Part shown: positions 2,379 through 15,604 of the stretch, piece after piece
How the letters are laid out: each line of letters starts with the position of its first letter
Position numbering within the stretch: the first letter of the stretch is position 1
IMG/VR virus record: IMGVR_UViG_2548876944_000013
Span: 1 to 23,600 of that record
Origin: a virus
Lineage: Duplodnaviria > Heunggongvirae > Uroviricota > Caudoviricetes
Length of the DNA: 23,600 nt
Direction: 5' to 3' (one strand)
Notes under the pieces: model-generated
What the model was told of the DNA's origin: nothing
The model's database searches: none
What the model saw: only the letters and a program-made list of their open reading frames with translations
Translations under genes and position numbers: made by a program

Positions 2379-2671
2379 TCAATTACCGCCGGATCTTGCA
2401 TCAATGACGCTTGAGCAACCAAACCGATTAATTCACTGCGGACGTTAGTATACAGTGCCTTAACTTGTTCAATAGATTCAAATACTGGTTTACCGTCTTC
2501 ATCTTCAATACAACGAAGAATAGAACGTTCATCACGGTCTTCTTTATCGGTATTGAAAACATGTTCATTAAATTCTTTTACTGACATAGGGCGAGCATAG
2601 AAAGTAAATCCACCGATGGTCAGAGATTCGCGTTTCGGAGAGAGTGCGGCTAACATTTCATTAATATTCAT
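2363..2671 (-). CDS. tail assembly chaperone (gpG-like, 102 aa)
   Basis: Small acidic ORF immediately after the tail tube gene and before the tape measure gene. Coding sequence ends gta aag taa, a possible slip site into the downstream -1 frame. Confidence 0.5.
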   Translation of the reverse strand: MNINEMLAALSPKRESLTIGGFTFYARPMSVKEFNEHVFNTDKEDRDERSILRCIEDEDGKPVFESIEQVKALYTNVRSELIGLVAQASLMQDPAVIENEVK

Positions 2672-2720
2672 TATTGTTTCCTCTTAAGTTAATTAGATAT
2701 GTTTATTTAGAATTGGAAAC

Positions 2721-2745
2721 AAAAAAGCCACCCCGAAGGATGGCT
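2721..2745 (-). terminator. intrinsic terminator after tail tube gene (minus strand)
   Basis: Hairpin gcca-cc-(UUCG)-gg-uggc read on the minus strand, followed by a run of six U (2726-2721). Lies between the tail tube stop (2754) and the chaperone start (2671). Confidence 0.6.
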
Positions 2746-2753
2746 AGAGAATA

Positions 2754-3224
2754 TTAGACTTTCTGGAAAACAGCTTGTTTAACCGGAGCACCATCTACTA
2801 CAAAGGTGAAAGAACGACCTACTACAGCATCTTCACCGCCCGTCATGGTAGTTTTAGACAGGAAGCCGTTATAAGCGATGTGCACACCAGATTTTTTCGT
2901 AGCGTCGATGTAGTAAGCAATTTTAAGCTGTACGCGCTTACCGTCTTCGGTTGCTTTAATCAGTTTTTCGTGTACTTCGTTACCCGGCATGTAGTTGATC
3001 GAAAGTTCGATATCCGGTACAGACATACGACCAACCAGCTTACGGTTATACGGACCACCGAAGTTAGGAACATCGATAGTAGAACGTTCTACACCAGTTT
3101 CCGGGAAAGCCGCACATTCTGGAATTTCCAGATAGCTTTCACTGTCAAGATCGGTGTTAGTTACTTCTTCATGCAGAAACAGACCAACGAGGCCACCAGA
3201 AAAAATATCAAATTTAGTAGTCAT
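2754..3224 (-). CDS. major tail tube protein (lambda gpV N-domain-like, 156 aa)
   Basis: Sequence pattern SYLE...SINYMPGNE...KRVQLKIAY resembles my recollection of the lambda gpV N-domain (SYLDDE...LAWMPGEQG...AYKIRF). Strongly biased 'high-expression' codon usage. Sits directly upstream of the chaperone pair. SD aggaaaaga. Confidence 0.6.
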   Translation of the reverse strand: MTTKFDIFSGGLVGLFLHEEVTNTDLDSESYLEIPECAAFPETGVERSTIDVPNFGGPYNRKLVGRMSVPDIELSINYMPGNEVHEKLIKATEDGKRVQLKIAYYIDATKKSGVHIAYNGFLSKTTMTGGEDAVVGRSFTFVVDGAPVKQAVFQKV

Positions 3225-3278
3225 TATTCTTTTCCTTCTATTTTAAACAATAGGGCACATACCCGTAATTCTATTTAT

Positions 3279-3581
3279 TTAGCGGTTGCTCAAACGTCTA
3301 TAACGAAGATGAGCGATCCCCCTATTTGTGCTAACGGTAATTACCGCCCCTTGCGGTGCAATACAAGAATGAATCTGTCCCCAATCATGACCCTTATGGC
3401 TTCCAGAAACACACAAACCATGAATAAGCAATTCAGAGTCACCACCGCCACCACCGGAAGAATGAGCACAGAATGAAATAGTCCCGAAAGCGTCGGCTGT
3501 CCAACCGTTAGGAATATCAAACCATCCTTGATTTGCTTTACCCGCCCTATTCCCCAAAGCGCCATCTACCCAAAATGCCAT
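3279..3581 (-). CDS. paralog 3 of a tandem triad of ~100-aa Gly/Trp-rich proteins (FDIPNGW motif), function unknown
   Basis: MAFWVDG...WFDIPNGW... Shares the N-terminal M-x-x-W, FDIPNGW/Y, Gly-rich centre and C-terminal V(S/T)F..G...YFKF-type end with the two upstream ORFs. Its ATG overlaps the stop of the preceding paralog (TAATG). Confidence 0.55.
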   Translation of the reverse strand: MAFWVDGALGNRAGKANQGWFDIPNGWTADAFGTISFCAHSSGGGGGDSELLIHGLCVSGSHKGHDWGQIHSCIAPQGAVITVSTNRGIAHLRYRRLSNR

Positions 3582-3886
3582 TAGTGCATTCTCCTGAATT
3601 TAAAATAATGCAAACTACCTTTACCCAATGTAAAGCTAACGGTAGCACCAGCGCCAACTAAAGAACTAGCGCCCCAACTCCCAGCATCACCAGCATGATG
3701 ACCTGATTCAATCAATCCATTTACAGCCAATTCAGAATCAAGATCACCAGCACCGTTAATGGCTTCCATATGAGCAAAAACAATTCCGCATGAATCAGTA
3801 ACCCAGCCGTTGGGGATATCAAAATATCCACCATTAGCCCAAATACTAATAGCGTTTGACATTCTTTGATTTATCCATCCAGCCAT
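3581..3886 (-). CDS. paralog 2 of the tandem triad (101 aa), function unknown
   Basis: MAGWINQ...YFDIPNGW...VSFTLGKGSLHYFKF. Start lies 2 nt after the stop of paralog 1 (translational coupling). Confidence 0.55.
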   Translation of the reverse strand: MAGWINQRMSNAISIWANGGYFDIPNGWVTDSCGIVFAHMEAINGAGDLDSELAVNGLIESGHHAGDAGSWGASSLVGAGATVSFTLGKGSLHYFKFRRMH

Positions 3887-3888
3887 AA

Positions 3889-4185
3889 TTAAAACTCCAT
3901 GAATTTAAAATATTCAACACCACCTTCACCCCCTAAACCAAAGGAGACGGTGCAGCCAGCAGGAACAAACGAATTTATAGTAGATCCCCAATTGGTCCCA
4001 CCACGACGACGAGCAACGGTCAAACCATCTACGTTAATATGTGCATCAGACCACCCACCACCAGCATTATGACGCATTACAGCGACACCAGCACGAGCAG
4101 TACCATAGCCGTTAGGAATATCAAATACATGCCATTTTAAAGCATCGATTTTAGTATTAATTTCACTACTTACCCAATATCCCAT
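3889..4185 (-). CDS. paralog 1 of the tandem triad (98 aa), function unknown
   Basis: MGYWVSS...VFDIPNGY...VSFGLGGEGGVEYFKF. SD aaggatt upstream. Immediately downstream of the fibre gene. Confidence 0.55.
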   Translation of the reverse strand: MGYWVSSEINTKIDALKWHVFDIPNGYGTARAGVAVMRHNAGGGWSDAHINVDGLTVARRRGGTNWGSTINSFVPAGCTVSFGLGGEGGVEYFKFMEF

Positions 4186-4223
4186 ATAAGAATCCTTAGC
4201 GGAGATTTCTCCCCGCTTTCCAA

Positions 4224-7200
4224 TTACCCTAATTTAGCTTCAATTGCAGCAAGACGTTCACGAAGAAGTTTATTTTCTTCGCTCATTTCTTGGACCGCTT
4301 TAATTAAAAGCGCGTTCACTGCGGAGTTTGAAATTGTAAAAATTTCTTCTGGGTTATCAAAACCACCAATTTTTGCGGTTTTAACAGCTTCCGGTAATAC
4401 CTCTTGTAAATCCTGTGCGATAATACCAATCTCATGACCTATAACTTCTCGGTCATTAAGAGATTTAACTTTATCGTAGGTTTTAACTTTGAGTTTATTT
4501 ACCTTATCCACCGCATTTTCTTCGTAATCTTCAACATTAATTTTCAGACGACGATCGGAACGAATATAAACATCGTTAAAGTTTCCGTTACCAGTGGCAT
4601 GAAATTCTCCACTTGCATGGAATTGATAATCAGCACCCTGAACATGAAGAACCGCTGCCGCAGTATTATTACTATCACCGGGACAATGAACGTCCATAAC
4701 AGCGATGTAGTTACGCCCCCAATCAACCGCTTTCCAAATAGCATGAGCACTATCAACGCTTTGTTGACAGTCAACCAACAAACCAGCAGGTCGGTCTCTC
4801 CATGCAACATATGCACCACCAGAAACCTCACCACGGATAAGTCCTTGATCTGCGGCATAAGGAACACGCCCTTCCAGTTTAATCATCGCGCCCTGGAAGT
4901 GATGACTAACTGCACCCTCATGATTATTTCGTATATGTAAAATACCATCATCTGTAGCCCAGATAACAGCCTTTTCTGCCTCGCTATCATCTCTAAACCA
5001 GACGTGGCGAGCACCAGCAGAGTTTTTGATAGTAATCCCGGAAGGTCCATGCACAGTAAAAGCGCCAGCAACATCAAACATCAAACTGTTATCTGTCCTG
5101 CGTTCAGCATAGAAGTGATAACCTTTGGAATCGCCGACTTCCATTACTGCCGCGCGACCAACTTCTGAATTTCCCCAATTATTAATAGAGAATCGTTCAG
5201 AGCTATTATTCATCTGATTTAGGTATAATGTACCATCAGTGAATGTTTCGCCAAAGAAACGAGTTTTAACGCCGTTAGTACCCCCCACGCGTTCAAATTC
5301 AGCCAAGAAACCTTTGGAATCTCGCATACTCAAAACGTTATTGCGTCCTGTATTACTGTTACCCCAATGGATTAATTCAATATAGTCCATTGACTGACGA
5401 GACCCTGATCTAAACACCATATTATCTTCGATGCGGGTGCTACCATCAATTCCCAGATGTAAACAGCGTGCGGTAGCTGTGCCACCTAGATCCAATCCAC
5501 CTTCGGCAAAATCATAGCTGAATGGTCTACGGCTATTCCACCCACCGAAAGAATCTTTTAAATCGGTAGTAAGGATATGGAAGCTAGAACCATCATTTCT
5601 AAAAATTAAGCCATAGTTGCCACCTTTAACAGCCAAACGAGCATTTTCAGATAATGCAACTTCGCTATTCATTACAATTTTCTGGCCTTTACCGCCAGTA
5701 ATATGTAATTCACCGTTTTCGATCAAGTTTATAGAGTTTTGACCGTTATCGTTCCACCAAATAAAATCTTTGGTCGTCAAATCACCAAAACCAAACCAAC
5801 CATTACGAACATCTTGACCAGTGCGATAATCCATGAAATTAAAATGGCTTGCTTCGTTTGGTCCTCGACGAATATCAATACCAGCATTAGAACCGGAACC
5901 TAAGCCACCATCGATGGTCAATCTACGAATATGTAACCCGGTTGCAGCCGAAAGCAATAATTGTTGGTTTACATCGTCATATCCAGTAGCAAGACGATAA
6001 TTTTGATCATCAACAGTTTCATGCCAGATAGTGGCAGGAGCAGAACTACGGAAGCGACGCAACATCTTTTTGCTGTTAGTTTGTTGTTCGTTCAAATGCT
6101 CAATGTCATATTGGCCTTGATGGTTTCCAGCAAAGTTTAACGTCCCACGGTTGCTAAAGTTATTGAACGATGAAATGTTAAGAGCATCAAAAATTTCGTC
6201 TGCAACAGGTTTTTCACCACCCAGATATTCAGGAGTATCCAACAGGTTTAAAGAAACACCACCGGAAGAAACTTGATATTCTGCTAAAACAAATCCTGTA
6301 TGTGCACCGTAGTAAGCGTAAAGATCGTAATTGTCGCCATCGGTTGGAATAGCACAAAAATGTTGTTCATAATGCCAAATAGTATAATACGCATTGAATA
6401 CAACACCTTTCGGGCTATTGTTGCCGCATCGAATCACCAATTCGATAATATTGGCTTGTCCATTATGTCCTACGTTATAACCGTTACCACCAACCAAACG
6501 GATCTTAGCCGTGCGACCGTGTTGTTGTGGCATTGTCAAAGTGCCTAGTTTAAACCAACCACCCTCGATACCAAAATTAAGCGTCTTCTGGAACAGTCGG
6601 TCAATTTCTGCTTTCGAATATGCGCCAATTTCAGCCGGAGTAGGTTTATCGCCTTCATGATACATGCGGTGAGAATATGACAAATCACCTAATTCATCAT
6701 AGCCGTATGTTCTTACAGTAGCATGTGGATTAGACCCATAAGTGAACTCGAAGCCACGAGCATGATTAACACCAGATGGATGCGGAACATGCAAGATCAT
6801 TGCAATATGACCCGCCAGGTCATTCATGCGGAATGCACCAAAGTAATCAAGATTACGCGCATTTGGATCATCAAAATAGTTTGCGGTCTTAGACAGCAAA
6901 TAACCATCAGTATAAGTGTTTACGTGTTTTTTGATGTACTTGCCATCAGCAGATCCATCGGCTGCATCAATACGGCTTTCTAAACGTGCCAGTTCAGAAT
7001 CAGTGTAAGACTTGTTATTGTCAACTTTGCTATGAATTGCTGTATTTTTGGCTTCAACATCACGGGTTAATGCTGCGACGTTATCCGCTGCCTCTTGCTT
7101 ATTGGCTGCAATCACACCAGTAAGGTTATTGTAGGTGTCAGTTAACTGATTTTCCGCATAGACTTTATTTGCTGCGATAGTGCGGTCAGTTTCTGCCTTA

Positions 7201-7754
7201 ATCAAATCAACCTTGTCATTGATTGCTTTGTCATTGCTTGCGATGGTTGCATCGGTGCGGGATTTAATATCATCAACTTTTTTATTGATGCGGGTGTCCA
7301 GTTCCTGAGTTGCTACAGCAGCCGCATTTTTATTAGCGTTGATGGTATCCGACAATTCAGCTTTAACACCAGCAAGGTCGGAAGCAGCTTTATTTTTATT
7401 GGCCTCGATTGTCGCGTCGGTTTCGCGTTTAATTACATCAACTTTATTGTTAATTTCTGCGTGATTTGCTGCGATGGTTGCATCAGTAGTTTGTTTAATT
7501 TCATCTACTTTAGCGTGAATATTGCGGTCATTTACTGCAATTGTGCTATCTAGTTCTTGTTTGTTAGCATCAACTTTAGATTCTAGTGCCGCGTGAGTTT
7601 CAGGAGAAACAGAGATTTGAACTACTTCATGATCTCGGTCTTTGGTAAAAATAACATGGTCTTTAAGGTTGATTGCTACCTCACCGACCTGTAATTGTTC
7701 CGGCGTTGGTTTTTTGCCAGAAACATTAGTTCGTTTAAATTGGATTGATTGCAT
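4224..7754 (-). CDS. long fibre protein (1176 aa) with N-terminal coiled-coil repeats and C-terminal self-cleaving intramolecular chaperone domain (peptidase S74-like)
   Basis: N-terminus KRTNVSGKKPTPEQLQVGEVAINLKD is fibre-like. About five repeats of KVDxIKxxTDATIxAN follow. C-terminal ~110 aa begins SDRRLK (Ser codon at 4557-4559) and continues with the GHEIGIIAQDLQEVLPEAV pattern typical of the endosialidase/T5 L-shaped-fibre chaperone domain. SD gaggtg. Confidence 0.8.
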   Translation of the reverse strand: MQSIQFKRTNVSGKKPTPEQLQVGEVAINLKDHVIFTKDRDHEVVQISVSPETHAALESKVDANKQELDSTIAVNDRNIHAKVDEIKQTTDATIAANHAEINNKVDVIKRETDATIEANKNKAASDLAGVKAELSDTINANKNAAAVATQELDTRINKKVDDIKSRTDATIASNDKAINDKVDLIKAETDRTIAANKVYAENQLTDTYNNLTGVIAANKQEAADNVAALTRDVEAKNTAIHSKVDNNKSYTDSELARLESRIDAADGSADGKYIKKHVNTYTDGYLLSKTANYFDDPNARNLDYFGAFRMNDLAGHIAMILHVPHPSGVNHARGFEFTYGSNPHATVRTYGYDELGDLSYSHRMYHEGDKPTPAEIGAYSKAEIDRLFQKTLNFGIEGGWFKLGTLTMPQQHGRTAKIRLVGGNGYNVGHNGQANIIELVIRCGNNSPKGVVFNAYYTIWHYEQHFCAIPTDGDNYDLYAYYGAHTGFVLAEYQVSSGGVSLNLLDTPEYLGGEKPVADEIFDALNISSFNNFSNRGTLNFAGNHQGQYDIEHLNEQQTNSKKMLRRFRSSAPATIWHETVDDQNYRLATGYDDVNQQLLLSAATGLHIRRLTIDGGLGSGSNAGIDIRRGPNEASHFNFMDYRTGQDVRNGWFGFGDLTTKDFIWWNDNGQNSINLIENGELHITGGKGQKIVMNSEVALSENARLAVKGGNYGLIFRNDGSSFHILTTDLKDSFGGWNSRRPFSYDFAEGGLDLGGTATARCLHLGIDGSTRIEDNMVFRSGSRQSMDYIELIHWGNSNTGRNNVLSMRDSKGFLAEFERVGGTNGVKTRFFGETFTDGTLYLNQMNNSSERFSINNWGNSEVGRAAVMEVGDSKGYHFYAERRTDNSLMFDVAGAFTVHGPSGITIKNSAGARHVWFRDDSEAEKAVIWATDDGILHIRNNHEGAVSHHFQGAMIKLEGRVPYAADQGLIRGEVSGGAYVAWRDRPAGLLVDCQQSVDSAHAIWKAVDWGRNYIAVMDVHCPGDSNNTAAAVLHVQGADYQFHASGEFHATGNGNFNDVYIRSDRRLKINVEDYEENAVDKVNKLKVKTYDKVKSLNDREVIGHEIGIIAQDLQEVLPEAVKTAKIGGFDNPEEIFTISNSAVNALLIKAVQEMSEENKLLRERLAAIEAKLG

Positions 7755-7780
7755 CTAATCACCTCACATAAAACAGGAAT

Positions 7781-7798
7781 AAGGGAGGCGTTAACCTC
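7781..7798 (-). terminator. stem-loop (possible attenuator) between the 277-aa gene and the fibre gene
   Basis: Perfect palindrome gggagg-cgttaa-cctccc. On the minus strand it is followed by a U-rich stretch, uuauuccuguuuua. Confidence 0.35.
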
Positions 7799-7825
7799 CC
7801 CGTCATGTTTTATTTAGAGAAGCAA

Positions 7826-8659
7826 TCAGTATTTCCCGAAATCGATCCGGTCATGGATAGAAACGGCTTCAATCTCGGCTGGTGTCGGTTTTTCTTCTGT
7901 GGAATACAATTTCACCCATCCAGAATTACCGTCTTTCTGGACTGTGCGAACTCGTAAACGTGGTGCACCAGAAGCGGTGCAAGTTAATTGCCATCCACCA
8001 TCTTCATTAGGTTGAACGTGAATTAGTGAAGTATCAGCACTAAATGGGTTAGATGCGCTCGATCCCTGATAGGTTACGAAACGGTTTCCGGCTAATGCTT
8101 CGCTATCAATCGGACCCGTGAATGGATTTACACCAGCACCCAAACCAAAATCACCCTGACGTAAGATCCGGCCTTCGGTAGCAATACCGCGATCTAGAAT
8201 CCCGCCATCAGGTTCTAATTTAAACTCGATTGTAGTAACTTTGTTATCACCGGATTTTGTTTTATGTGACGAGACATAAGCGTCAAAAATGACGTAGTAA
8301 CCTGTGTTAGCAGCACTGTAACCAGAGTTCACAACATAGAACATACGAAAGCGTAAAGGAGTTTTATCATTCACCGCTTTCATCAACATGTCTTGATGTT
8401 CGTCATCCAGAACACGGTTTACTACTAACGTAGTTGATTCAAGTTTACGATAGCCAGCAAGTTTACCCGTAGCGTCCTGATCATACTCTTCTAACGTCTG
8501 GATCTCTGTGGATTCGGTTATCGTCGGGAATGCTGCGATGTTCTCGATAGGACTAAATGCAGGATCGAAAAAGTCCGGCTGGTTATCCACCATAGTAGAC
8601 ACGGAGACTTCAACATGCGACCCCGTGAAAATGTCTAAGTTATCTTGTGTAATATTCAT
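7826..8659 (-). CDS. virion structural protein (277 aa), neck/collar or tail-associated; carries KPTPAEI motif shared with the fibre
   Basis: Beta-rich composition and position between neck-protein genes and the fibre gene. C-terminus EEKPTPAEIEAVS mirrors GDKPTPAEIGAYS inside the fibre. SD aagggg. Confidence 0.4.
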   Translation of the reverse strand: MNITQDNLDIFTGSHVEVSVSTMVDNQPDFFDPAFSPIENIAAFPTITESTEIQTLEEYDQDATGKLAGYRKLESTTLVVNRVLDDEHQDMLMKAVNDKTPLRFRMFYVVNSGYSAANTGYYVIFDAYVSSHKTKSGDNKVTTIEFKLEPDGGILDRGIATEGRILRQGDFGLGAGVNPFTGPIDSEALAGNRFVTYQGSSASNPFSADTSLIHVQPNEDGGWQLTCTASGAPRLRVRTVQKDGNSGWVKLYSTEEKPTPAEIEAVSIHDRIDFGKY

Positions 8660-8668
8660 TATTACCCC

Positions 8669-9070
8669 TTAAAAACGCGCTAGATAAGAAAATTTAAGGC
8701 TAAGTGTCCCAACGATACCCCCATCACTAGAATCATCGTCATAATCGGTATTAGAAGCTACTGGAGTGATATCTGAAATAGAGAAGCCCAAATCTTTAAA
8801 TCGTGGGTTATCTGGCTGAATCTGGATTATCTGGCAAATACCCTCATGAATTTTCGTTTCATGAATCTGAGAATATAACTGCATTTCGATAACGCATTCA
8901 GCTTGCATTGCATTACCACCACGGCCCCTAGTGTAAGTCTCATTCATTCCGGTGATCCAACAAACCACGTCATCACTAAAGCCTTGCTGAGTTTGTTCTA
9001 CGTTTAAAGCCAGACCTAAATCTTGTTCGATAATATCTTGCAAGGCGCGTTTGATTTTCAGTCTAGGCAT
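8669..9070 (-). CDS. putative head-tail joining / tail completion protein (134 aa from the ATG at 9070; ORF track extends to 9139)
   Basis: The ATG at 9070-9068 lies 4 nt after the stop of the upstream gene (coupling). The longer upstream extension overlaps the preceding gene by 65 nt. Assignment is by position after the capsid gene only. Confidence 0.4.
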   Translation of the reverse strand: MPRLKIKRALQDIIEQDLGLALNVEQTQQGFSDDVVCWITGMNETYTRGRGGNAMQAECVIEMQLYSQIHETKIHEGICQIIQIQPDNPRFKDLGFSISDITPVASNTDYDDDSSDGGIVGTLSLKFSYLARF

Positions 9071-9074
9071 GTTA

Positions 9075-9365
9075 TTAACGGTAGCGAGCATGTGTACCCC
9101 CTGCCAGAGTAATAAAGCAATCAGTGGTATTATCACCATTGCGCTTAACGTATTGAACTTTGAAACGCTGGTTTTCTACAATGACAATATCACCCTGCTT
9201 TAAGTCTCCCTCACGACAAAATAGAAATTCTGTCTCTGTCATTACCCCTTGTTCGTCGGTAGTAGTAATTTCATGATAAGCACGAATTGATTTACCACCT
9301 TCCACCGAAAATACAGGAGCACTTCGGAACATTCTTGATAATTGTGATTCTGATAATTTGAACAT
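9075..9365 (-). CDS. putative head completion / head-tail adaptor protein (96 aa)
   Basis: Small ORF directly after the capsid gene and its terminator. SD aggggg. Size and predicted beta-rich sequence fit adaptor proteins, but there is no specific motif. Confidence 0.4.
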   Translation of the reverse strand: MFKLSESQLSRMFRSAPVFSVEGGKSIRAYHEITTTDEQGVMTETEFLFCREGDLKQGDIVIVENQRFKVQYVKRNGDNTTDCFITLAGGTHARYR

Positions 9366-9391
9366 AGTTACCCCCTTTATGGAGTATTTAC

Positions 9392-9422
9392 ATACAAAAA
9401 AGCCCCACCATAAGGCAGGGCT
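9392..9422 (-). terminator. intrinsic terminator downstream of the capsid gene (minus strand)
   Basis: Hairpin agccc...gggct with an internal loop, followed on the minus strand by uuuuu (9400-9396). Confidence 0.5.
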
Positions 9423-9556
9423 AATTATTATTCTTTAGTTTTACGTTGTTTTTTAACTGTGGCTTTCGCCGTAACCGTCTGGGAATCTTCTTCCGGTTTA
9501 GGAATCAGATTTTCTTCCCCCAAATCGGGGGAAGGTTCAGAAGGTTCTACGCTAGT

Positions 9557-11563
9557 TCAGTCAGCGGAGATGTGAAGAACTTTCAGCGCTTCCGGCTGGG
9601 TTACAACGTAATCCAGATCTACCCAGATACGCGGAACGATAGCAGACTGTGCGCGGTAGGTAGTGTCATCAATGTCAAGTTCCAGACCCCCCCATTCACC
9701 GATGGTAATAGCGTCGAACGATCCCAGAACGATGTGGTCTACCGGAATAACACCAGAAGTAACTACGTCGTAACCAGCCAGTTTACCGTTTTCGATGATA
9801 TAACCGGAAACACCGTTATCTTTCAGGGTAGATTCCAGTTCAGCAGCAGTTGCACCGCTCATTGCAAACTTGATCGCCTGAGCAGGAACGCCAGCGTCGG
9901 TCAGTTTAGCAATTTCTTTCAGGAAGTCTTTATAAGAGAAAGCAGCTTTCTTCTCTACGCGACCAGCATCTACCAGTTGTTTAATCACACCAGCCGGACC
10001 ACGAGCATTTTCTTTGTCGGACAGAATCAGTTGTTCCAGTTTGATGCGAACAGCCTGGTTAATGTGATCAGTGATCAGGGTAGCGATCCCAGGAACGGTC
10101 TTGAGGCTAGCCCTAGAAATTGGGTTGCCACCAGCAAAAGTTTTCGGAGCCATTTTCACGTTCGCAAATTCGGCTTTACCTTCCGGTGCAGCACCGTTTT
10201 CATCAACGAAGCCGAAAGATTCAACGCTAGAAGCGGTCATTTTCGGAATAGCGGTCGGCGAAGTCAGACCAGACAGGACTTTCACACCCAGACGACCCAG
10301 AACGGATTCCGGCATCAGCATCGCTACATAGGAATCATTCAGCAGTTTTTCGTCAGTTACAGCGGTCAGAGTAGCTTTGGTGTTACCATCAGCAGCAGCA
10401 CGCATAGCAGCAGTAGGAACGAATACGGAGCCACCGCGAGCAGCACGACCACGCTGCATAGTTGCAGTAGCAGCCATTGCAGAAAACTCGGCTTCGTTAG
10501 CACCCAGAGCTTCACCATCTACCAGAGAGCGAATTACGTTGTTCAGGTCAAAAGTTTTTTCCATTTTAGAGTCCTTAATTTGTTGTTCGTTATTACGTTG
10601 AGCATTGGTAATGTTATTTAGTGCCTTAGTGCGGAATGCTTCCGGCGTCATGTCTTTAATTGCCAATGCGCGTTCTAATTCTTCGTCGTTAATATTTAGT
10701 TCGCGTGCAATTTCGCGAATTTCTAATTCGTCTTCTTCGGAACGTTCAGCCACTTCCTCGGTTTTTTCTTCTTCAACCGGAGCGGCTTCACGTTCTTCTT
10801 TTACTTCTTCTGTTTCCCGAACAGTTGAACTATCATCATCAACACTTTCAGGATGTTCAGCGTCTTTTCCGTCTTCGAGATTTTCATCTTCTTTATTCTC
10901 TTCAACTTGGCGCTCTTGAGTTTCTTCAACTTCCGATTCTTTATTTTCTTCTACCGGAGTTTCTTCAACCTGAGCGGATTCTTGTTCTTCTTTGATTTCT
11001 TCAATTTGTTCTTTAGTCATATCGCGTTTAGCCTCCAAATTAACTGTGATAGTATTTAGAGAGCGATTTAAACCGACCGAATCGTCCGCCGGGACCGTAA
11101 CAAAACTTAATTCGAACGGAACAAACTTAGTAACAATCAATTGCCCTTTGGTGTAGTCGATGTGATATTCTTTAATGTCATAGCCGACAGAAATTTTTTC
11201 CATCGTACCTTCAATGACTTTATTACGAATATCATTAGCCAAAGTGCCATGCTTAGAGAATCTAACGGTCGCACGGCCTACTTTATCCGCATCGATTCGA
11301 GCGTTACAAACGACACCTAAATGATTATCGAAATTATGATTAAACAGCAACGGAGCGTTATTATTCAGACGAGACAGATCAACCGCTTCCGGTGTATGTA
11401 CCAGAATTTCATCTAATACCACCATTTCTTGATTTTGCTCATCCCAGAATTGGCGCTGATACGGCTGTTCACTGGAGAAAGCAATTTCAAATTCGTATTG
11501 ATCATTATGCCCTTCGTTAATAACTCCACCGTAACCGTTAAGTTCGCGGCGAAATTTAAGCAT
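9557..11563 (-). CDS. prohead protease - scaffold(delta)-like acidic linker - HK97-fold major capsid protein, fused in one ORF (668 aa)
   Basis: N-terminal ~170 aa resemble the HK97-type prohead protease (LLFNHNFDNHLGVV, ISVGY). Residues ~180-330 are Glu-rich and coiled-coil, like a scaffold/delta domain. The C-terminal ~330 aa are capsid-like with strong 'high-expression' codon bias. SD aaggtga. Confidence 0.75.
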   Translation of the reverse strand: MLKFRRELNGYGGVINEGHNDQYEFEIAFSSEQPYQRQFWDEQNQEMVVLDEILVHTPEAVDLSRLNNNAPLLFNHNFDNHLGVVCNARIDADKVGRATVRFSKHGTLANDIRNKVIEGTMEKISVGYDIKEYHIDYTKGQLIVTKFVPFELSFVTVPADDSVGLNRSLNTITVNLEAKRDMTKEQIEEIKEEQESAQVEETPVEENKESEVEETQERQVEENKEDENLEDGKDAEHPESVDDDSSTVRETEEVKEEREAAPVEEEKTEEVAERSEEDELEIREIARELNINDEELERALAIKDMTPEAFRTKALNNITNAQRNNEQQIKDSKMEKTFDLNNVIRSLVDGEALGANEAEFSAMAATATMQRGRAARGGSVFVPTAAMRAAADGNTKATLTAVTDEKLLNDSYVAMLMPESVLGRLGVKVLSGLTSPTAIPKMTASSVESFGFVDENGAAPEGKAEFANVKMAPKTFAGGNPISRASLKTVPGIATLITDHINQAVRIKLEQLILSDKENARGPAGVIKQLVDAGRVEKKAAFSYKDFLKEIAKLTDAGVPAQAIKFAMSGATAAELESTLKDNGVSGYIIENGKLAGYDVVTSGVIPVDHIVLGSFDAITIGEWGGLELDIDDTTYRAQSAIVPRIWVDLDYVVTQPEALKVLHISAD

Positions 11564-11583
11564 TTAATCACCTTTAATTAATT

Positions 11584-11600
11584 GGGGGCATTGCGCCCCC
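11584..11600 (-). other. GC-rich stem-loop between portal and capsid genes
   Basis: gggggc-attgc-gccccc, a 6-bp all-GC stem, with no U-run. Possible RNA processing or stability element. Confidence 0.4.
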
Positions 11601-11608
11601 GTTGGTTA

Positions 11609-12073
11609 TTAGGGATCGGTTGGGGAATTTTTTTCTTCACCCTCACCATCAACGATAATATTTAGTGCGCTCTTTTCGGCTTGAATCTCTGAGAATACTT
11701 TTTCAGGATCATCACCACGTTCTAATATAACGGCAGTACGTGATTTAAGTCCTTTATCAATTAAAGCAATCTCGGCGTTTACGTCTTTAATTGGATCGAC
11801 GGATTCAAAACGCGGACGAATAATAGTAGTGTTGTCGATAATATGCGGAATTGCAGTAATACGAATCGGAACAATACCACGCGCGGAATAATGGCGTAGA
11901 TATGCTTCAAAAATTGGCAATACCACTGTTTCAATTAATTTGTTTTGCAGTGCTTTAACTCGTGTGCGTTGAGTTAATTCACCAAAACGCGCGGCTGAGT
12001 AGTTGATCTGGGAAGTATCACCAGTCAAGCCCTGTTTAAACACGCCTAAGCCCATTGATACGCTAGTAAACAT
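11609..12073 (-). CDS. portal protein, C-terminal portion (out of frame with the upstream portal ORF)
   Basis: Overlaps the 357-aa ORF by 28 nt in a different frame, and this frame is open far upstream of its ATG. No SD before the ATG at 12073. The two ORFs together span ~1.5 kb, the size of a lambda-gpB-type portal gene. Confidence 0.5.
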   Translation of the reverse strand: MFTSVSMGLGVFKQGLTGDTSQINYSAARFGELTQRTRVKALQNKLIETVVLPIFEAYLRHYSARGIVPIRITAIPHIIDNTTIIRPRFESVDPIKDVNAEIALIDKGLKSRTAVILERGDDPEKVFSEIQAEKSALNIIVDGEGEEKNSPTDP

Positions 12074-13119
12074 CGCATCATTGAAGCTGTTAAAGTCATC
12101 ACCGCTTTGGCGCTCTGAATTGCCTTGATCGTTGCCCCTTCCGGCAATTCCTGAATAGTACCCGGTGCAAAATCCTGTACTACTTCCGGCGCTTGATATT
12201 GGTCTTCATCTTCGCCAGTATCAAAATCGTCACCAGAATCTTTCGGACGTTCGATAAAGCCCATAGAGCTAGCTGCAATACGTTTCTGGATGATCGCAGT
12301 TTCGCGGAATGCGTCTTGATGTGCGATATCCTTGATCACTGGTAGGAAGTCAGTCACACCACGCAGAGATTCAGCCGTAAGTGGTTGATAATAATGGCAT
12401 ACTTGCGAAGCCTCGACACGATAGTTATCACCTGTGTAGGTCTGAGTCAGTAGATTGACTTTACGAAACCAGTATGCAACAGGGCGCATTGTGTTCACGT
12501 CATACTCCACACCTTGATATATCGCACGTTCTTTGCTTACTTCACGATTGAGCGACCAGTCGCACTTATCAGCAGACAGGATAGAAACATTTAACTCATT
12601 GTTTTCTTTGGTTAAAACGATGAAGCACTCACCACCCATAACGCGCTCACGTTCAGCCATTACCAGCAGTTCACGGAAGTTAAAGCGACCATTGCGGGAG
12701 AAGCGTTTAGCATTCTGCGCCCACTTCCAGAAAGCATTCTCAATCTGCTTATTCAGTGCGCTATCAAGTTTGCCATTTGATTTAACAACTGACGGCTTCG
12801 GATCTAGGCCAGTACCGACCACCATATCGGTGATGTATTGCGTGTAGCGACTGCCTACGGAAGTGTTTAAGGCCAGAGTACGACCCTGATCATAAAGGCG
12901 CTTACCGTTCGATTTGAGAGCCTTATTGAAGGTTCCGGTAATGGTGTCTTGTTGAAGCTGTCCATCAATGCGATCACCGACCAAGCCCAAAGAACGCTTA
13001 GACAAATCTTTCTGGAATTTTTCTACTTGTTTGTCGATAAAGATTTTTTGTTGTTGCTGGCGGTGATTAGTTTTAACTGGAGTTTCTACCGCCTTTTTGC
13101 GTCGAAAAAGATTAAACAT
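12046..13119 (-). CDS. portal protein, N-terminal portion (357 aa ORF)
   Basis: Position directly after the large terminase gene and an intervening small gene. SD aagggg. Called as portal mainly from position and the combined ~500-aa size of the two ORFs; no specific portal motif was identified. Confidence 0.55.
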   Translation of the reverse strand: MFNLFRRKKAVETPVKTNHRQQQQKIFIDKQVEKFQKDLSKRSLGLVGDRIDGQLQQDTITGTFNKALKSNGKRLYDQGRTLALNTSVGSRYTQYITDMVVGTGLDPKPSVVKSNGKLDSALNKQIENAFWKWAQNAKRFSRNGRFNFRELLVMAERERVMGGECFIVLTKENNELNVSILSADKCDWSLNREVSKERAIYQGVEYDVNTMRPVAYWFRKVNLLTQTYTGDNYRVEASQVCHYYQPLTAESLRGVTDFLPVIKDIAHQDAFRETAIIQKRIAASSMGFIERPKDSGDDFDTGEDEDQYQAPEVVQDFAPGTIQELPEGATIKAIQSAKAVMTLTASMMRCLLAYQWA

Positions 13120-13696: not shown

Positions 13697-15604
13697 TTAG
13701 AACGATGTTACCCAGCTACGGCCTCTATTTGGGCGTCTGGCGATGTTTTGACGTTGTGGTCGTGTGATTGGCTTAGTTTCTTCTATTTGCTCGTCAGATT
13801 GCGATTTAGGAGCTTCTACGGATTCTTCGACAACACGGTTTAAGCTGTCTTTCATTGCAATGAGTTTATCCCATGACATTTTTGAAAGAACGTAGCGAGA
13901 AGCAGCATAGCTATAAACCAGACAGTCGAGAGCCTCGTTTCGGGTACTACCTGGATTTTTCACCCAACGCACGCCAGTAGTAGTACGCTTGATGGATTCA
14001 CTCAAAAGCTGATCGAGATAATCATCAGGAACGGTTTCTGATATTTCTAAGCCAATATGAGGATTATCTTTCAGGTTTCTAACCAGCATTTCACGAACAG
14101 CGGATTTACCAACGTTAACACCCAGCATAAGCAATTCATGACCACCTGTGCGGGTAGGTTTAACCGGAATCACTGGAGCATTACCAGATGAACTACCTTT
14201 GATAGCGTGTAGGTTCTTCCACTTGCCGCAAATACGGTATCCGGCTTGAGTGAATCGACCGTTCGATGTATCAAGGAAGCTGGCGAGCATTGGTACACGT
14301 TCACCATTAACGTTATAGAATTTGGTTTTCTTGAAGTTAACCAGGCGATCCCAAACAGGTGATTCATATCGTTCACAGTTATGATCGTAAAAGCTGCGGT
14401 GATCCAGAATGTAAACCTTATCTTTCGCTACACCTAAGATGGTAGATTCTGCGCGGTCCAATTGCTGGTCAATTCCTGAACACAAGAAAATCACGTCATC
14501 AGGGATATTCTCGATAGAAACATCTGTTTTGAGTTGTTCCAGTTCATTTGCTTCTACTGCCGTGTCCTGATCGTCGTATACCTTGCCTAACACGGTGTTA
14601 AAAAAGGATTGTAAATCAAAGGATTGCCACGCATGACTAAAATCAACCACACAAGCGCGGATACTACTGAAAGGTGAATACAGACGGCTGATCCAGAATC
14701 CTGCTACTTCACTTTCACGGGTTGCTCTCCACTCGCCTTGCGCTACTGCCCTAATTCGTTCCCCTTCTGTCCATGCGTTCTTACAGTGGGGGCAAATATA
14801 ACGAGCGGTATCAGGATCGGGTAAGTTCTTACCATCGATGTTACGCCATTCAAATTGAACGTTTTCCCACTCGATCACCTGGTGTTCCCCGCAATGAGGA
14901 CACGGAACAAAAAACATACGCATATCGCTTGATAACCATTGCTGGTTAATGCTTCCGAGCTTACTGGTCGGGGTACTGGATACGACTAATCGGCCTTCAT
15001 CGCCAAAGGTAGTTAAACGGTTAGCAGCCAGTGCCACCGGATCACCTTCTTCTGAGGCTGTAGCAGCATCGATTTCGTCAAGCAATCCAACCTTTGCGGT
15101 CTTACCACGTAGGGTCGATGGACTGGTTAGCGATACCATGTAAAGGAAGTGATTCGTTTTTAGCTGTAGCTGGTTATTGTTGTTAACCGCATTGCGATCA
15201 TTCTTGTCTGTAACCACGTCTTTTAATGCATCACATGCTTCGATAGACGGTCGGATCTTACCAGCGAGATATTGAGACATTTCTTTAGCGGTTGATTGTC
15301 CGATAATCATATTGCATGGATCGTTAGCCATCTGGTTAAACAGGATACCGTTCAGGATGGTAGTCTTTCCGATCTGCGCACTGGTCATCAGAACATACTT
15401 TTTCTTGTTCTCAAGGAAAGGAGCATCAATCATGCCTTTCTGGAATGACAGCAATTTAACTTTATCCCCAGCTTGAGGACCATCTACCAGCACCATATTA
15501 GCTTCGCACCATTCAGAAGGAAGGAGCTTAGGCGGTGGCGTAATATATTTGGCTGCATTTTTGAGAATCTTTTTTAATTTGGCCTTATTAGAAATTAGTT
15601 TCAT
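13697..15604 (-). CDS. terminase large subunit (GpA family, 635 aa)
   Basis: Walker A-like [11 protein letters not shown] near the N-terminus. CPHCGE...CPHCKN double-cysteine motif mid-protein. Length and domain order match lambda-gpA-type terminases. SD gaggg. Confidence 0.8.

Follow-up and report, generated by a model that had tools for sequence, protein, structure and literature searches.

Why does a highly expressed capsid gene end in UGA followed by A, a weak stop context, and why is that stop followed in the same frame by 42 further sense codons that run up to the transcription terminator? The question is raised by a 23,600-nucleotide stretch of DNA (positions 1 to 23,600 of IMG/VR record IMGVR_UViG_2548876944_000013; ‘the window’ hereafter means this whole stretch), which contains an Escherichia coli tailed prophage with its late genes on the minus strand. 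An earlier note, made from the letters of the window, had proposed that the UGA is read through to give a minor, C-terminally extended capsid protein. This proposal is supported by frame conservation, by the pattern of insertions and deletions (indels), by substitution bias and by the UGA-A context, and we consider it probable that the capsid gene's weak UGA-A stop is read through to a minor isoform with a 42-codon tail. Comparison of related prophages shows selection maintaining the UGA-A, the reading frame, the tandem stops that close it and an RNA structure that lies within it. By the same comparison, the UGA-A, a 10-nt spacer, the RNA structure, the tail-coding sequence, the stop and the terminator behave as a portable unit, here called the cassette, which we found behind four very different capsid alleles and behind the tail-tube gene among related prophages. 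The gene that carries the cassette in the window, and the parts of the cassette, are as follows.

9560..11563, minus strand: one open reading frame (ORF) of 668 aa that joins a Peptidase_S78 prohead protease, an acidic scaffold-like linker and an HK97-type major capsid protein (Phage_capsid), assigned by Pfam
9560..10564, minus strand: capsid-protein domain, from composition profile and sequence
9559-9557, minus strand: capsid stop UGA, with A as the +4 base at 9556; proposed read-through site
9556-9431, minus strand: in-frame 42-codon extension, TSVEPSEPSPDLGEENLIPKPEEDSQTVTAKATVKKQRKTKE, by translation
9430-9428 and 9427-9425, minus strand: tandem in-frame stops UAA UAA, by translation
9547..9556, minus strand: 10-nt spacer ACTAGCGTAG from the UGA to the first paired base, from alignments
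9473..9546, minus strand: structured RNA domain, from the consensus fold and the minimum free energy (MFE) fold
9546-9538 with 9481-9473, minus strand: basal stem, AACC.TCTG with CAGA.GGTT
9534-9514, minus strand: invariant 8-bp hairpin CTTCCCCC-GATTT-GGGGGAAG, enclosed by the basal stem
9504-9491, minus strand: 4-bp hairpin, enclosed by the basal stem
9461..9470, minus strand: small hairpin GGC-GAAA-GCC within the T-A-K-A codons, present in all three cassette types
9395..9422, minus strand: intrinsic terminator AGCCCTGCC-TTAT-GGTGGGGCT plus T run (stem 9422-9401), from a terminator scan

The 668-aa protein matched PF04586 (E=1.4e-10) and PF05065 (E=1e-22) in Pfam, and its closest solved structure was 8gta, the capsid protein of roseophage R4C (E=8e-24), whose shell is built of 415 copies. 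Codon and GC bias are stronger in the capsid domain than anywhere else in the window. A possible internal start (ATG at 10564-10562, with AAGGA upstream) stands where GC content rises from ~40% to ~50% and from where codon bias is strong, which suggests that the capsid domain might also be translated separately, from this ATG, at a high level. The protein ends ...KVLHISAD, the final sense codon being GAC (Asp, 9562-9560), and the UGA-A follows. Highly expressed bacterial genes prefer UAA as their stop (PMC5289835); TAA closes 17 of the 21 complete genes in the window, and TGA-A is found only in the capsid gene. In E. coli, tRNA-Trp misreads UGA especially readily when the next base is A, according to Engelberg-Kulka 1981 as cited in PMC5289835.

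Other ways of reaching the extension, and another gene in its place, were rejected. Frameshifting in the window was ruled out, since the final 15 codons of the capsid gene contain no slippery X_XXY_YYZ heptamer and the extension lies in frame 0. A phage-encoded suppressor tRNA was likewise rejected, as the sole ARAGORN call in the window, a 91-nt tRNA-Glu (anticodon UUC; 8814-8904, plus strand), is no opal suppressor; it lies opposite and inside the head-completion ORF 8669-9139 and is probably a false positive. On the plus strand, a 391-aa antisense ORF (9446..10621) covers the capsid domain and is codon-aligned with the capsid gene, which would follow from the gene's avoidance of TTA, CTA and TCA codons. 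We rejected an antisense gene as an artifact; the ORF is broken in two haplotypes that have TTA in the extension.

The earlier note had counted 42 sense codons from the UGA at 9559-9557 to the TAA at 9430-9428, which translation of 9422-11563 bears out, and had described them as a linker followed by a basic tail. Residue counts agree, with first an acidic, Pro-rich part (residues 1-27: 8 D/E, 1 K/R and 5 P) and then a basic one (last 15 residues: 6 K/R). Together with one residue at the UGA, the extension comes to 43 residues and adds ~4.8 kDa (with Trp at the UGA). The predicted read-through product would be capsid-X-TSVEPSEPSPDLGEENLIPKPEEDSQTVTAK, where X is W, C or R and the residues after X begin TSVEPSEPSPDLGEENLIPK; peptides expected of this product include VLHISADWTSVEPSEPSPDLGEENLIPK and PEEDSQTVTAK. 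The annotated gap between the capsid gene and the next gene (start 9365) is 191 nt, and a 100%-identical genome carries no annotation there. Frame 0 stayed open in 9.8% of dinucleotide shuffles of the 126 nt, and read-through frames after other genes in the window run for 0-35 codons, with one reaching 280 by running into the next gene. Since the window sequence alone is insufficient, the significance of the open frame rests on comparative data.

Searches with the tail peptide returned little. Pfam has no family for the window's 42 low-complexity residues, which hold no folded Ig-like or FN3 domain. An AT-hook (PF02178) was rejected: tails of relatives ending ..KKVGRPPKAK and ..KKAGRPSKTAK scored 13.3-13.6 bits against a cut-off of 17.4, and the window's own tail (..KKQRKTKE) gave no match at all. 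A profile search with nine tail variants across 5.8 billion predicted proteins found no fused version in which a sense codon replaces the UGA; its sole match was one 33-aa gene call with a TTG start, from a related contig. The only in-frame TTG in the extension is CTG or TCG in some haplotypes.

Relatives were drawn from IMG/VR viral contigs, metagenome contigs, complete E. coli genomes and the Logan assembly collection, giving a capsid-linked set of 61 sequences with 32 extension haplotypes and 29 distinct peptides. The earlier note had named conservation of the open frame in related genomes as a check on its proposal, and TGA-A followed by an open frame 0 was present in 61/61 of these sequences. 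The length of frame 0 is 27, 28, 32, 33, 42, 43, 44 or 45 codons, and frames +1 and +2 are closed by stops in 29/29 capsid-linked haplotypes tested. The last sense codon before the UGA is GAN (Asp or Glu) in 61/61, and the extension stop lies closely 5′ of the terminator in all 61 relatives. The extension ends in TAATAA in 54 of the first 56 sequences and in TGATAA in 2; sequences added later brought more TGATAA and one TAATTA (L105). These arrangements accompany capsid alleles that are 84-100%, 74% (L059), 43% (L105) or 37% (L056, L060, L087, L099) identical to that of the window, and in L105 the terminator and the downstream gene also differ from the window's.

Indels in these sequences respect the reading frame. 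Within the extension there are eight separate indels, of which one of 48 nt separates the long cassette type from the short one and the others measure 27 nt, 9 nt and, in five cases, 3 nt; all are multiples of three, for which the chance expectation is (1/3)^8 = 1.5e-4. The 64-68 nt from the second stop to the next gene differ by 1 and 2 nt, at the terminator loop and at an A/G run, and have a single triplet change, a duplicated TAA. An in-frame stop would arise from ~4.3% of single-base changes, and with ~60 changes observed the chance of finding none is ~0.07. With substitutions counted along a spanning tree, the ratio of nonsynonymous to synonymous change (pN/pS) was 0.57 in frame 0 and 0.67-1.12 in the other five frames, and the synonymous excess in frame 0 had a rough binomial P = 0.002. 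Judged by these substitutions, the capsid-linked peptide is genuinely but weakly constrained, which is what a disordered linker would be expected to show. The basic tip is the most constrained part, K-K-[VA]-G-R-P-P-K-A-K being kept through synonymous GGA/GGT, CGT/CGC, CCA/CCG and AAA/AAG exchanges.

The same arrangement recurs behind a second gene. A 19-nt motif of the extension, GTTAMGGCGAAAGCCMCAG, is present in two copies ~5.85 kb apart in many related contigs, and the second copy lies directly 3′ of the tail-tube gene, which ends ...FTFAVDGKPLKQEIFTAG and then TGA-A. An in-frame extension of 36, 39 or 41 codons follows (for example, TNEELPLIEPEPQPEHEAVVIPEVEEVTAKATAKRSRKAKD), then TAA and a terminator. 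In the tube-linked set, which comprises 16 distinct contexts and 14 extension haplotypes, TGA-A and an open frame 0 were found in 16/16 contexts, with the other sense frames closed, so that frame 0 is open in 46/46 haplotypes when capsid-linked and tube-linked copies are taken together. Both tube-linked indels are multiples of three (10/10 with the capsid-linked ones), and pN/pS is 0.30 in frame 0 and 0.58-1.43 elsewhere (P = 2.6e-5). The tube-linked extension is homologous to the capsid one in relatives L084, L086, L087, L091 and L097. There is no reason for a non-coding element to follow UGA-A, in frame and open, after each of two unrelated genes.

The window's own tail-tube gene (2726-3224, minus strand) is without the cassette: it stops at TAA and runs straight into a terminator at 2745-2726. 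That terminator (2726-2745, minus strand; AGCCATCC-TTCG-GGGTGGCT plus T run) has the same sequence as the one that follows the capsid extension in L105 (3655-3685), and terminators seem, from such matches, to be swapped as modules among late genes and phages.

Within the extension lies a structured RNA, a feature beyond the earlier note. The 141 nt of the window fold with an MFE of −41.7 kcal/mol (z = −5.2 vs shuffles), and the short cassette type has z = −4.8. The 10-nt spacer is constant in the long, short and tube-linked types, as measured in alignments A3, A4 and A6, where the TGA occupies columns 13-15 and the structure begins at column 26. In all three types a closing stem (AAY... with ...RUU) ends just 5′ of the GGC-GAAA-GCC hairpin. 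The short type forms an 11-bp hairpin and shows a compensatory double change in each of three helices, among six sequences only; the tube type covaries at two consecutive pairs; and L105 has a 9-nt in-frame insertion in the hairpin loop. Covariation was absent from the long type, to which the window belongs, and a few of its sequences have one pair disrupted. In L059 the GGC-GAAA-GCC hairpin is kept by a compensatory change to GGA-GAAA-TCC that replaces Ala by Glu and Ala by Ser. Because some compensatory changes alter amino acids, the RNA is itself a target of selection. Rfam returned no family for the stretch at E <= 10 beyond chance-level matches.

The terminator that closes the cassette in the window has a 9-bp stem with six G-C pairs, beginning two bases 3′ of the second TAA. 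It is kept in all close relatives, and the site at 9422-9401 is the best-scoring terminator-like site in 2500-11700. In several eukaryotic viruses, a structure at a short fixed distance from a leaky stop stimulates read-through (PMC7026636), and by analogy the RNA structure here may stimulate read-through on bacterial ribosomes. Protection of a long and seldom translated 3′ region against nucleases or Rho is an equally possible role.

More distant relatives reach a similar tail in other ways. Their capsid genes, 37-42% identical to the window's, stop at TAA, except in L108 and L163 (TGA then T). The tail-less ones combine the TAA stop with a terminator that starts within ~40 nt of it. Some others carry short Lys/Ala-rich tails fused in frame (..GTPAEVKAALKASA, ..PAEAPAEAKAGK and ..GEAEAGETRKAK; also ..PAEVKAALKASA). 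A third group has a gap of 60-90 nt; there the −1 frame, uninterrupted from a few codons 5′ of the stop up to the terminator, specifies a similar basic tail (for example, KKDGSLTDTGAQAAPVRKPRALKVTK, KKVSVIPPVTDGDGEVSVKKAKKAKAE and RKAKAKAKAKAETAE). In L048, L049, L108 and L126, an in-register A_AAA_AAG heptamer, which is the dnaX slippery sequence, stands 3-5 codons 5′ of the stop, with a hairpin 3′ of the stop, and these relatives are predicted to make −1 frameshift extensions of the T7 10B type. The −1 frame tail group also takes in L034/DCP80, L046, L129, L132, L134 and L163. One capsid family thereby appears to gain a short basic tail by direct fusion, by −1 frameshifting or by UGA read-through. 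Phage C-terminal add-ons reach different frames by recombination, after which whichever recoding route works is selected (PMC5009743), and the mix of in-frame, −1 frame and read-through versions fits that picture.

How might the cassette work? Most ribosomes would terminate at the UGA and release the normal capsid protein. A minor fraction would place tryptophan from normal tRNA-Trp at the UGA, translate the tail's 42 additional codons and stop at UAA UAA. At the UGA, Trp-tRNA-Trp would compete with release factor 2 (RF2), in the way that normal tRNA-Trp is known to decode UGA in competition with RF2 (PMC10570021). The level of read-through, perhaps tuned by the RNA structure, would be a few percent, and a few percent of a ~415-copy capsid would give roughly ten extended subunits per capsid. 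The tail, an acidic, Pro-rich linker with a Lys/Arg-rich tip, would be disordered and displayed outside the head and the tail. An outer-surface position is expected because T7 10B, P22 coat protein and encapsulins have their C-termini on the outside, where siphophage tube extensions also lie. For the last of these, the external position of tail-tube extensions is documented along with a negatively charged tube lumen (PMC8718954). We speculate that the tail acts as a weak charge-based adhesin in contact with cell-surface or other polyanions, or, equally speculatively, that it is a contact point for another virion part. A fuller version of this model is tentative and, to our minds, doubtful: that the RNA structure actively sets read-through on bacterial ribosomes, which would make it a bacterial equivalent of the 3′ stimulators known from eukaryotic viruses, that recombination moves the cassette between major head and tail genes, and that within this capsid family the cassette is interchangeable with −1 frameshifting and fusion for adding one and the same kind of basic tail.

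Could the same observations arise without translation past the UGA? The stretch might be a non-coding, structured 3′ untranslated region (UTR) whose hairpins and terminator protect or process the abundant capsid mRNA (RNases, Rho), that is, a mobile terminator cassette that brings its own TGA and whose open frame is incidental. The strong predicted structure (z = −5.2 and −4.8), the compensatory changes, some of which alter amino acids, the hairpin that also directly follows the stop in TAA-stop relatives, the weak peptide-level constraint in the capsid-linked set and the clear mobility of the cassette as a unit would all be expected of such a region. It leaves unexplained, however, why 10/10 indels are multiples of three while the neighboring non-coding DNA varies by 1-2 nt, why only frame 0 is open in 46/46 haplotypes and why that frame has a synonymous excess, especially in the tube-linked copies (pN/pS 0.30). 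Nor does it account for the acidic-then-basic peptide character shared by non-homologous variants, or for the weakest stop context in a highly expressed gene whose relatives use TAA. We regard a purely non-coding role as unlikely. A very small probability attaches to an independent product, either a small protein started within the stretch or a 3′ UTR-derived small RNA that ends at the terminator. One caller did predict the 33-aa TTG-start protein in a related contig, distant relatives have possible small-ORF starts (an ATG in DCP80, a GTGA overlap in L108), and structured RNA with a terminator hairpin and U tail resembles Hfq-type 3′ UTR small RNAs. Yet no in-frame ATG or GTG is conserved, and the TTG, which varies to CTG/TCG, has no Shine-Dalgarno sequence. 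An independent product would need neither a frame match nor an invariant UGA-A behind two different genes, and a small RNA, for which there is no Rfam match, does not predict in-frame indels.

Two further explanations concern the UGA itself. Selenocysteine could be inserted there, with the downstream hairpin as a bacterial selenocysteine insertion sequence (SECIS) element, and a stable hairpin does stand at a fixed 10 nt from the UGA, near the minimal E. coli SECIS spacing of ~11 nt. SelB binding requires specific loop and bulge bases, however, and the loops differ between types (GAUUU, GAAA, 11 nt in L105, and only a long-range stem in the tube type), the hairpins have no conserved bulged U, and a selenoprotein capsid would be unprecedented. 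This explanation was rejected because the hairpins are not conserved in sequence, and we give it almost no credence. The arrangement could also be an evolutionary relic, a longer capsid C-terminus cut by a nonsense mutation and now decaying, an idea to which the short tails fused directly in frame in some distant relatives lend some color. Against decay, the UGA is common to all haplotypes, many substitutions and eight indels have brought no frameshift or stop, and the same arrangement stands behind the tail-tube gene. Decay would not keep the frame, the tandem stops and the synonymous excess, and no decayed version was present among the 61 capsid-linked sequences and 16 tube-linked contexts, which leaves a relic highly improbable.

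Several points nevertheless weigh against read-through. A single open frame of 42 codons could arise by chance (P ~0.10). The capsid-linked peptide is under weak purifying selection (pN/pS 0.57), variable columns are not focused on third positions (12, 18 and 17 at positions 1, 2 and 3), and the event counts, taken from a spanning tree, are rough. Constraint on the RNA structure is no weaker than on the peptide and could account for some of the conservation. Because the cassette spreads by recombination, its occurrences in the four capsid classes and behind the tube gene do not count as separate origins, and it is dispensable on the tail-tube gene, because the window's own tube gene is without it. 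In relatives the UGA is never replaced by a sense codon, which the non-coding explanation predicts as well. Finally, the support is wholly computational, and the prophage group is one without a cultured relative in the phage collection. The indel pattern and the tube-linked copies weigh more than the capsid-linked substitution analysis, and UGA read-through to a minor extended capsid protein is the reading that we favor.

The prophage that carries the cassette has the following further late genes in the window.

13697-15604, minus strand: large terminase, lambda-type
11609-13119, minus strand: portal, lambda-family; split gene
Downstream late genes, between the capsid and tail-tube genes, minus strand: head-completion genes and a 1176-aa fiber protein
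3224-2754, minus strand: tail-tube gene

No near-identical record was found in the phage collection, the best large terminase match being 43% identical, and two scans of species-representative genomes gave no match to the element. The 551-bp region around the capsid stop is present in 54/5,426 complete E. coli genomes (~1%); in strains 14EC017 (NZ_CP024134) and PK8568 (NZ_CP080126) it matches the window at 100% identity. Identical 668-aa proteins occur in E. coli, under the label ‘phage major capsid protein’, and in Shigella genomes. The element represents an uncultured group of E. coli/Shigella prophages. In the window, the portal gene is split by a 1-nt deletion near 12110 (GCGCCCAAAG to GCGCCAAAG) into overlapping ORFs at 12046..13119 and 11609..12073 (minus strand). 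The prophage in NZ_CP024134, otherwise 98.8% identical, has an intact portal of 503 aa. Either sequencing went wrong at a C run or, with its portal gene frameshifted, the window prophage is defective. In the same relative (L001; strain 14EC017, NZ_CP024134, 17772-18884), an IS421 insertion lies just 3′ of the gene for the 1176-aa fiber protein, and it is absent at the corresponding site of the window (~4190-4224). The fiber gene of the window contains a 117-nt direct repeat (7164-7280 and 7395-7511; 70% identity, 231 nt apart), and its homologues in RefSeq are annotated as ‘tail fiber domain-containing’ or ‘phage head spike fiber domain-containing’ proteins.

If UGA read-through occurs as proposed, tailed dsDNA phages, too, would set the ratio of two forms of a major head or tail protein by this means, and a single capsid family would reach the same end by three routes, namely direct fusion, −1 frameshifting and read-through. 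A conserved RNA structure 10 nt from a bacterial stop might then tune termination. Because the stretch is unannotated in RefSeq genomes, annotation pipelines would miss the extension product. For phage engineering, a C-terminal display site that is naturally tolerated and present at low copy on head and tail could also be of use.

In our literature search we met with no account of a tailed phage that reads through the stop of a major capsid or tail gene, and the RNA phage Qβ was the only bacterial-virus case of capsid-gene stop-codon read-through that the search returned. In Qβ, the major coat gene ends in a leaky UGA, and read-through in E. coli yields A1, a minority capsid subunit with an extended C-terminus (PMC8880383, PMC7026636), with normal tRNA-Trp decoding the UGA against RF2 (PMC10570021, PMC5289835). 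The cassette is like A1 in its leaky UGA at the end of the coat gene and its predicted minor extended subunit. Qβ, however, is a single-stranded RNA phage with an unrelated coat fold, whereas the element described here is a tailed, double-stranded DNA (dsDNA) prophage with an HK97-type capsid protein (PF05065, 8gta); as the two have no sequence relationship, the analogy is one of mechanism only, not of descent. The extension of A1 forms a folded domain nearly 200 residues long, and A1 itself was reportedly found essential for viable Qβ particles (by Hofstetter, in 1974). Unlike in Qβ, the tail here is of low complexity and 42 residues long, the stop precedes a conserved RNA structure and the cassette also occurs on the tail-tube gene.

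The products of dsDNA phages that most resemble the predicted isoform arise by frameshifting, the only route that a review of recoding names for such phage extensions (PMC5009743). The 10B protein of T7 and T3 is a minor capsid protein made by −1 frameshifting near the end of 10A, and it joins the shell (PMC5009743). The cassette shares with 10A/10B a highly expressed capsid gene, recoding at its 3′ end and a short extension, then a terminator. In T7 10B the extension is ~50 residues long, with the main terminator after it. The 10B route itself appears to be matched by the relatives with 37-42% identical capsids, through A_AAA_AAG and a −1 frame tail, whereas the window would use in-frame read-through; the capsid proteins of T7 and the window are not close relatives and their tail sequences are unrelated. 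In Lactobacillus phage A2 and Listeria phages PSA, A118 and A500, frameshifting extends major capsid and major tail proteins (PMC5009743), and the prophage group is like them in having a recoding-derived C-terminal extension predicted on both head and tail proteins. They differ in using +1 or −1 frameshifting, often to add Ig-like domains, where read-through and a domain-less tail are proposed here. For the tube-linked copies, gp17.1* of SPP1 offers a functional model: a minority tube subunit with a frameshift-added FN3, external and non-essential, it is believed to touch the cell surface transiently (PMC8718954). It too differs, combining a frameshift with a folded FN3 rather than read-through with a charged, disordered tail, and the window's tube gene is unextended.

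The closest parallel to the RNA structure comes from eukaryotic viruses, in which a leaky stop is followed by a short spacer and a conserved RNA structure, such as the gag-pol pseudoknot of murine leukemia virus (MuLV) or extended 3′ stem-loops (PMC7026636, PMC5009743). The cassette resembles these MuLV-type signals in its fixed spacer before the structure, here 10 nt in three cassette types; it is unlike them in that theirs act on eukaryotic ribosomes and release factors. We know of no natural bacterial case in which an RNA structure tunes termination at a fixed distance from a stop, and none was found in our literature search. The outcome proposed for this locus is thus familiar from T7, A2, PSA, A118 and SPP1, and its mechanism from Qβ; what is new is that the two would be combined in a dsDNA phage, and that a mobile cassette and an RNA structure at a fixed distance from the stop come with them.

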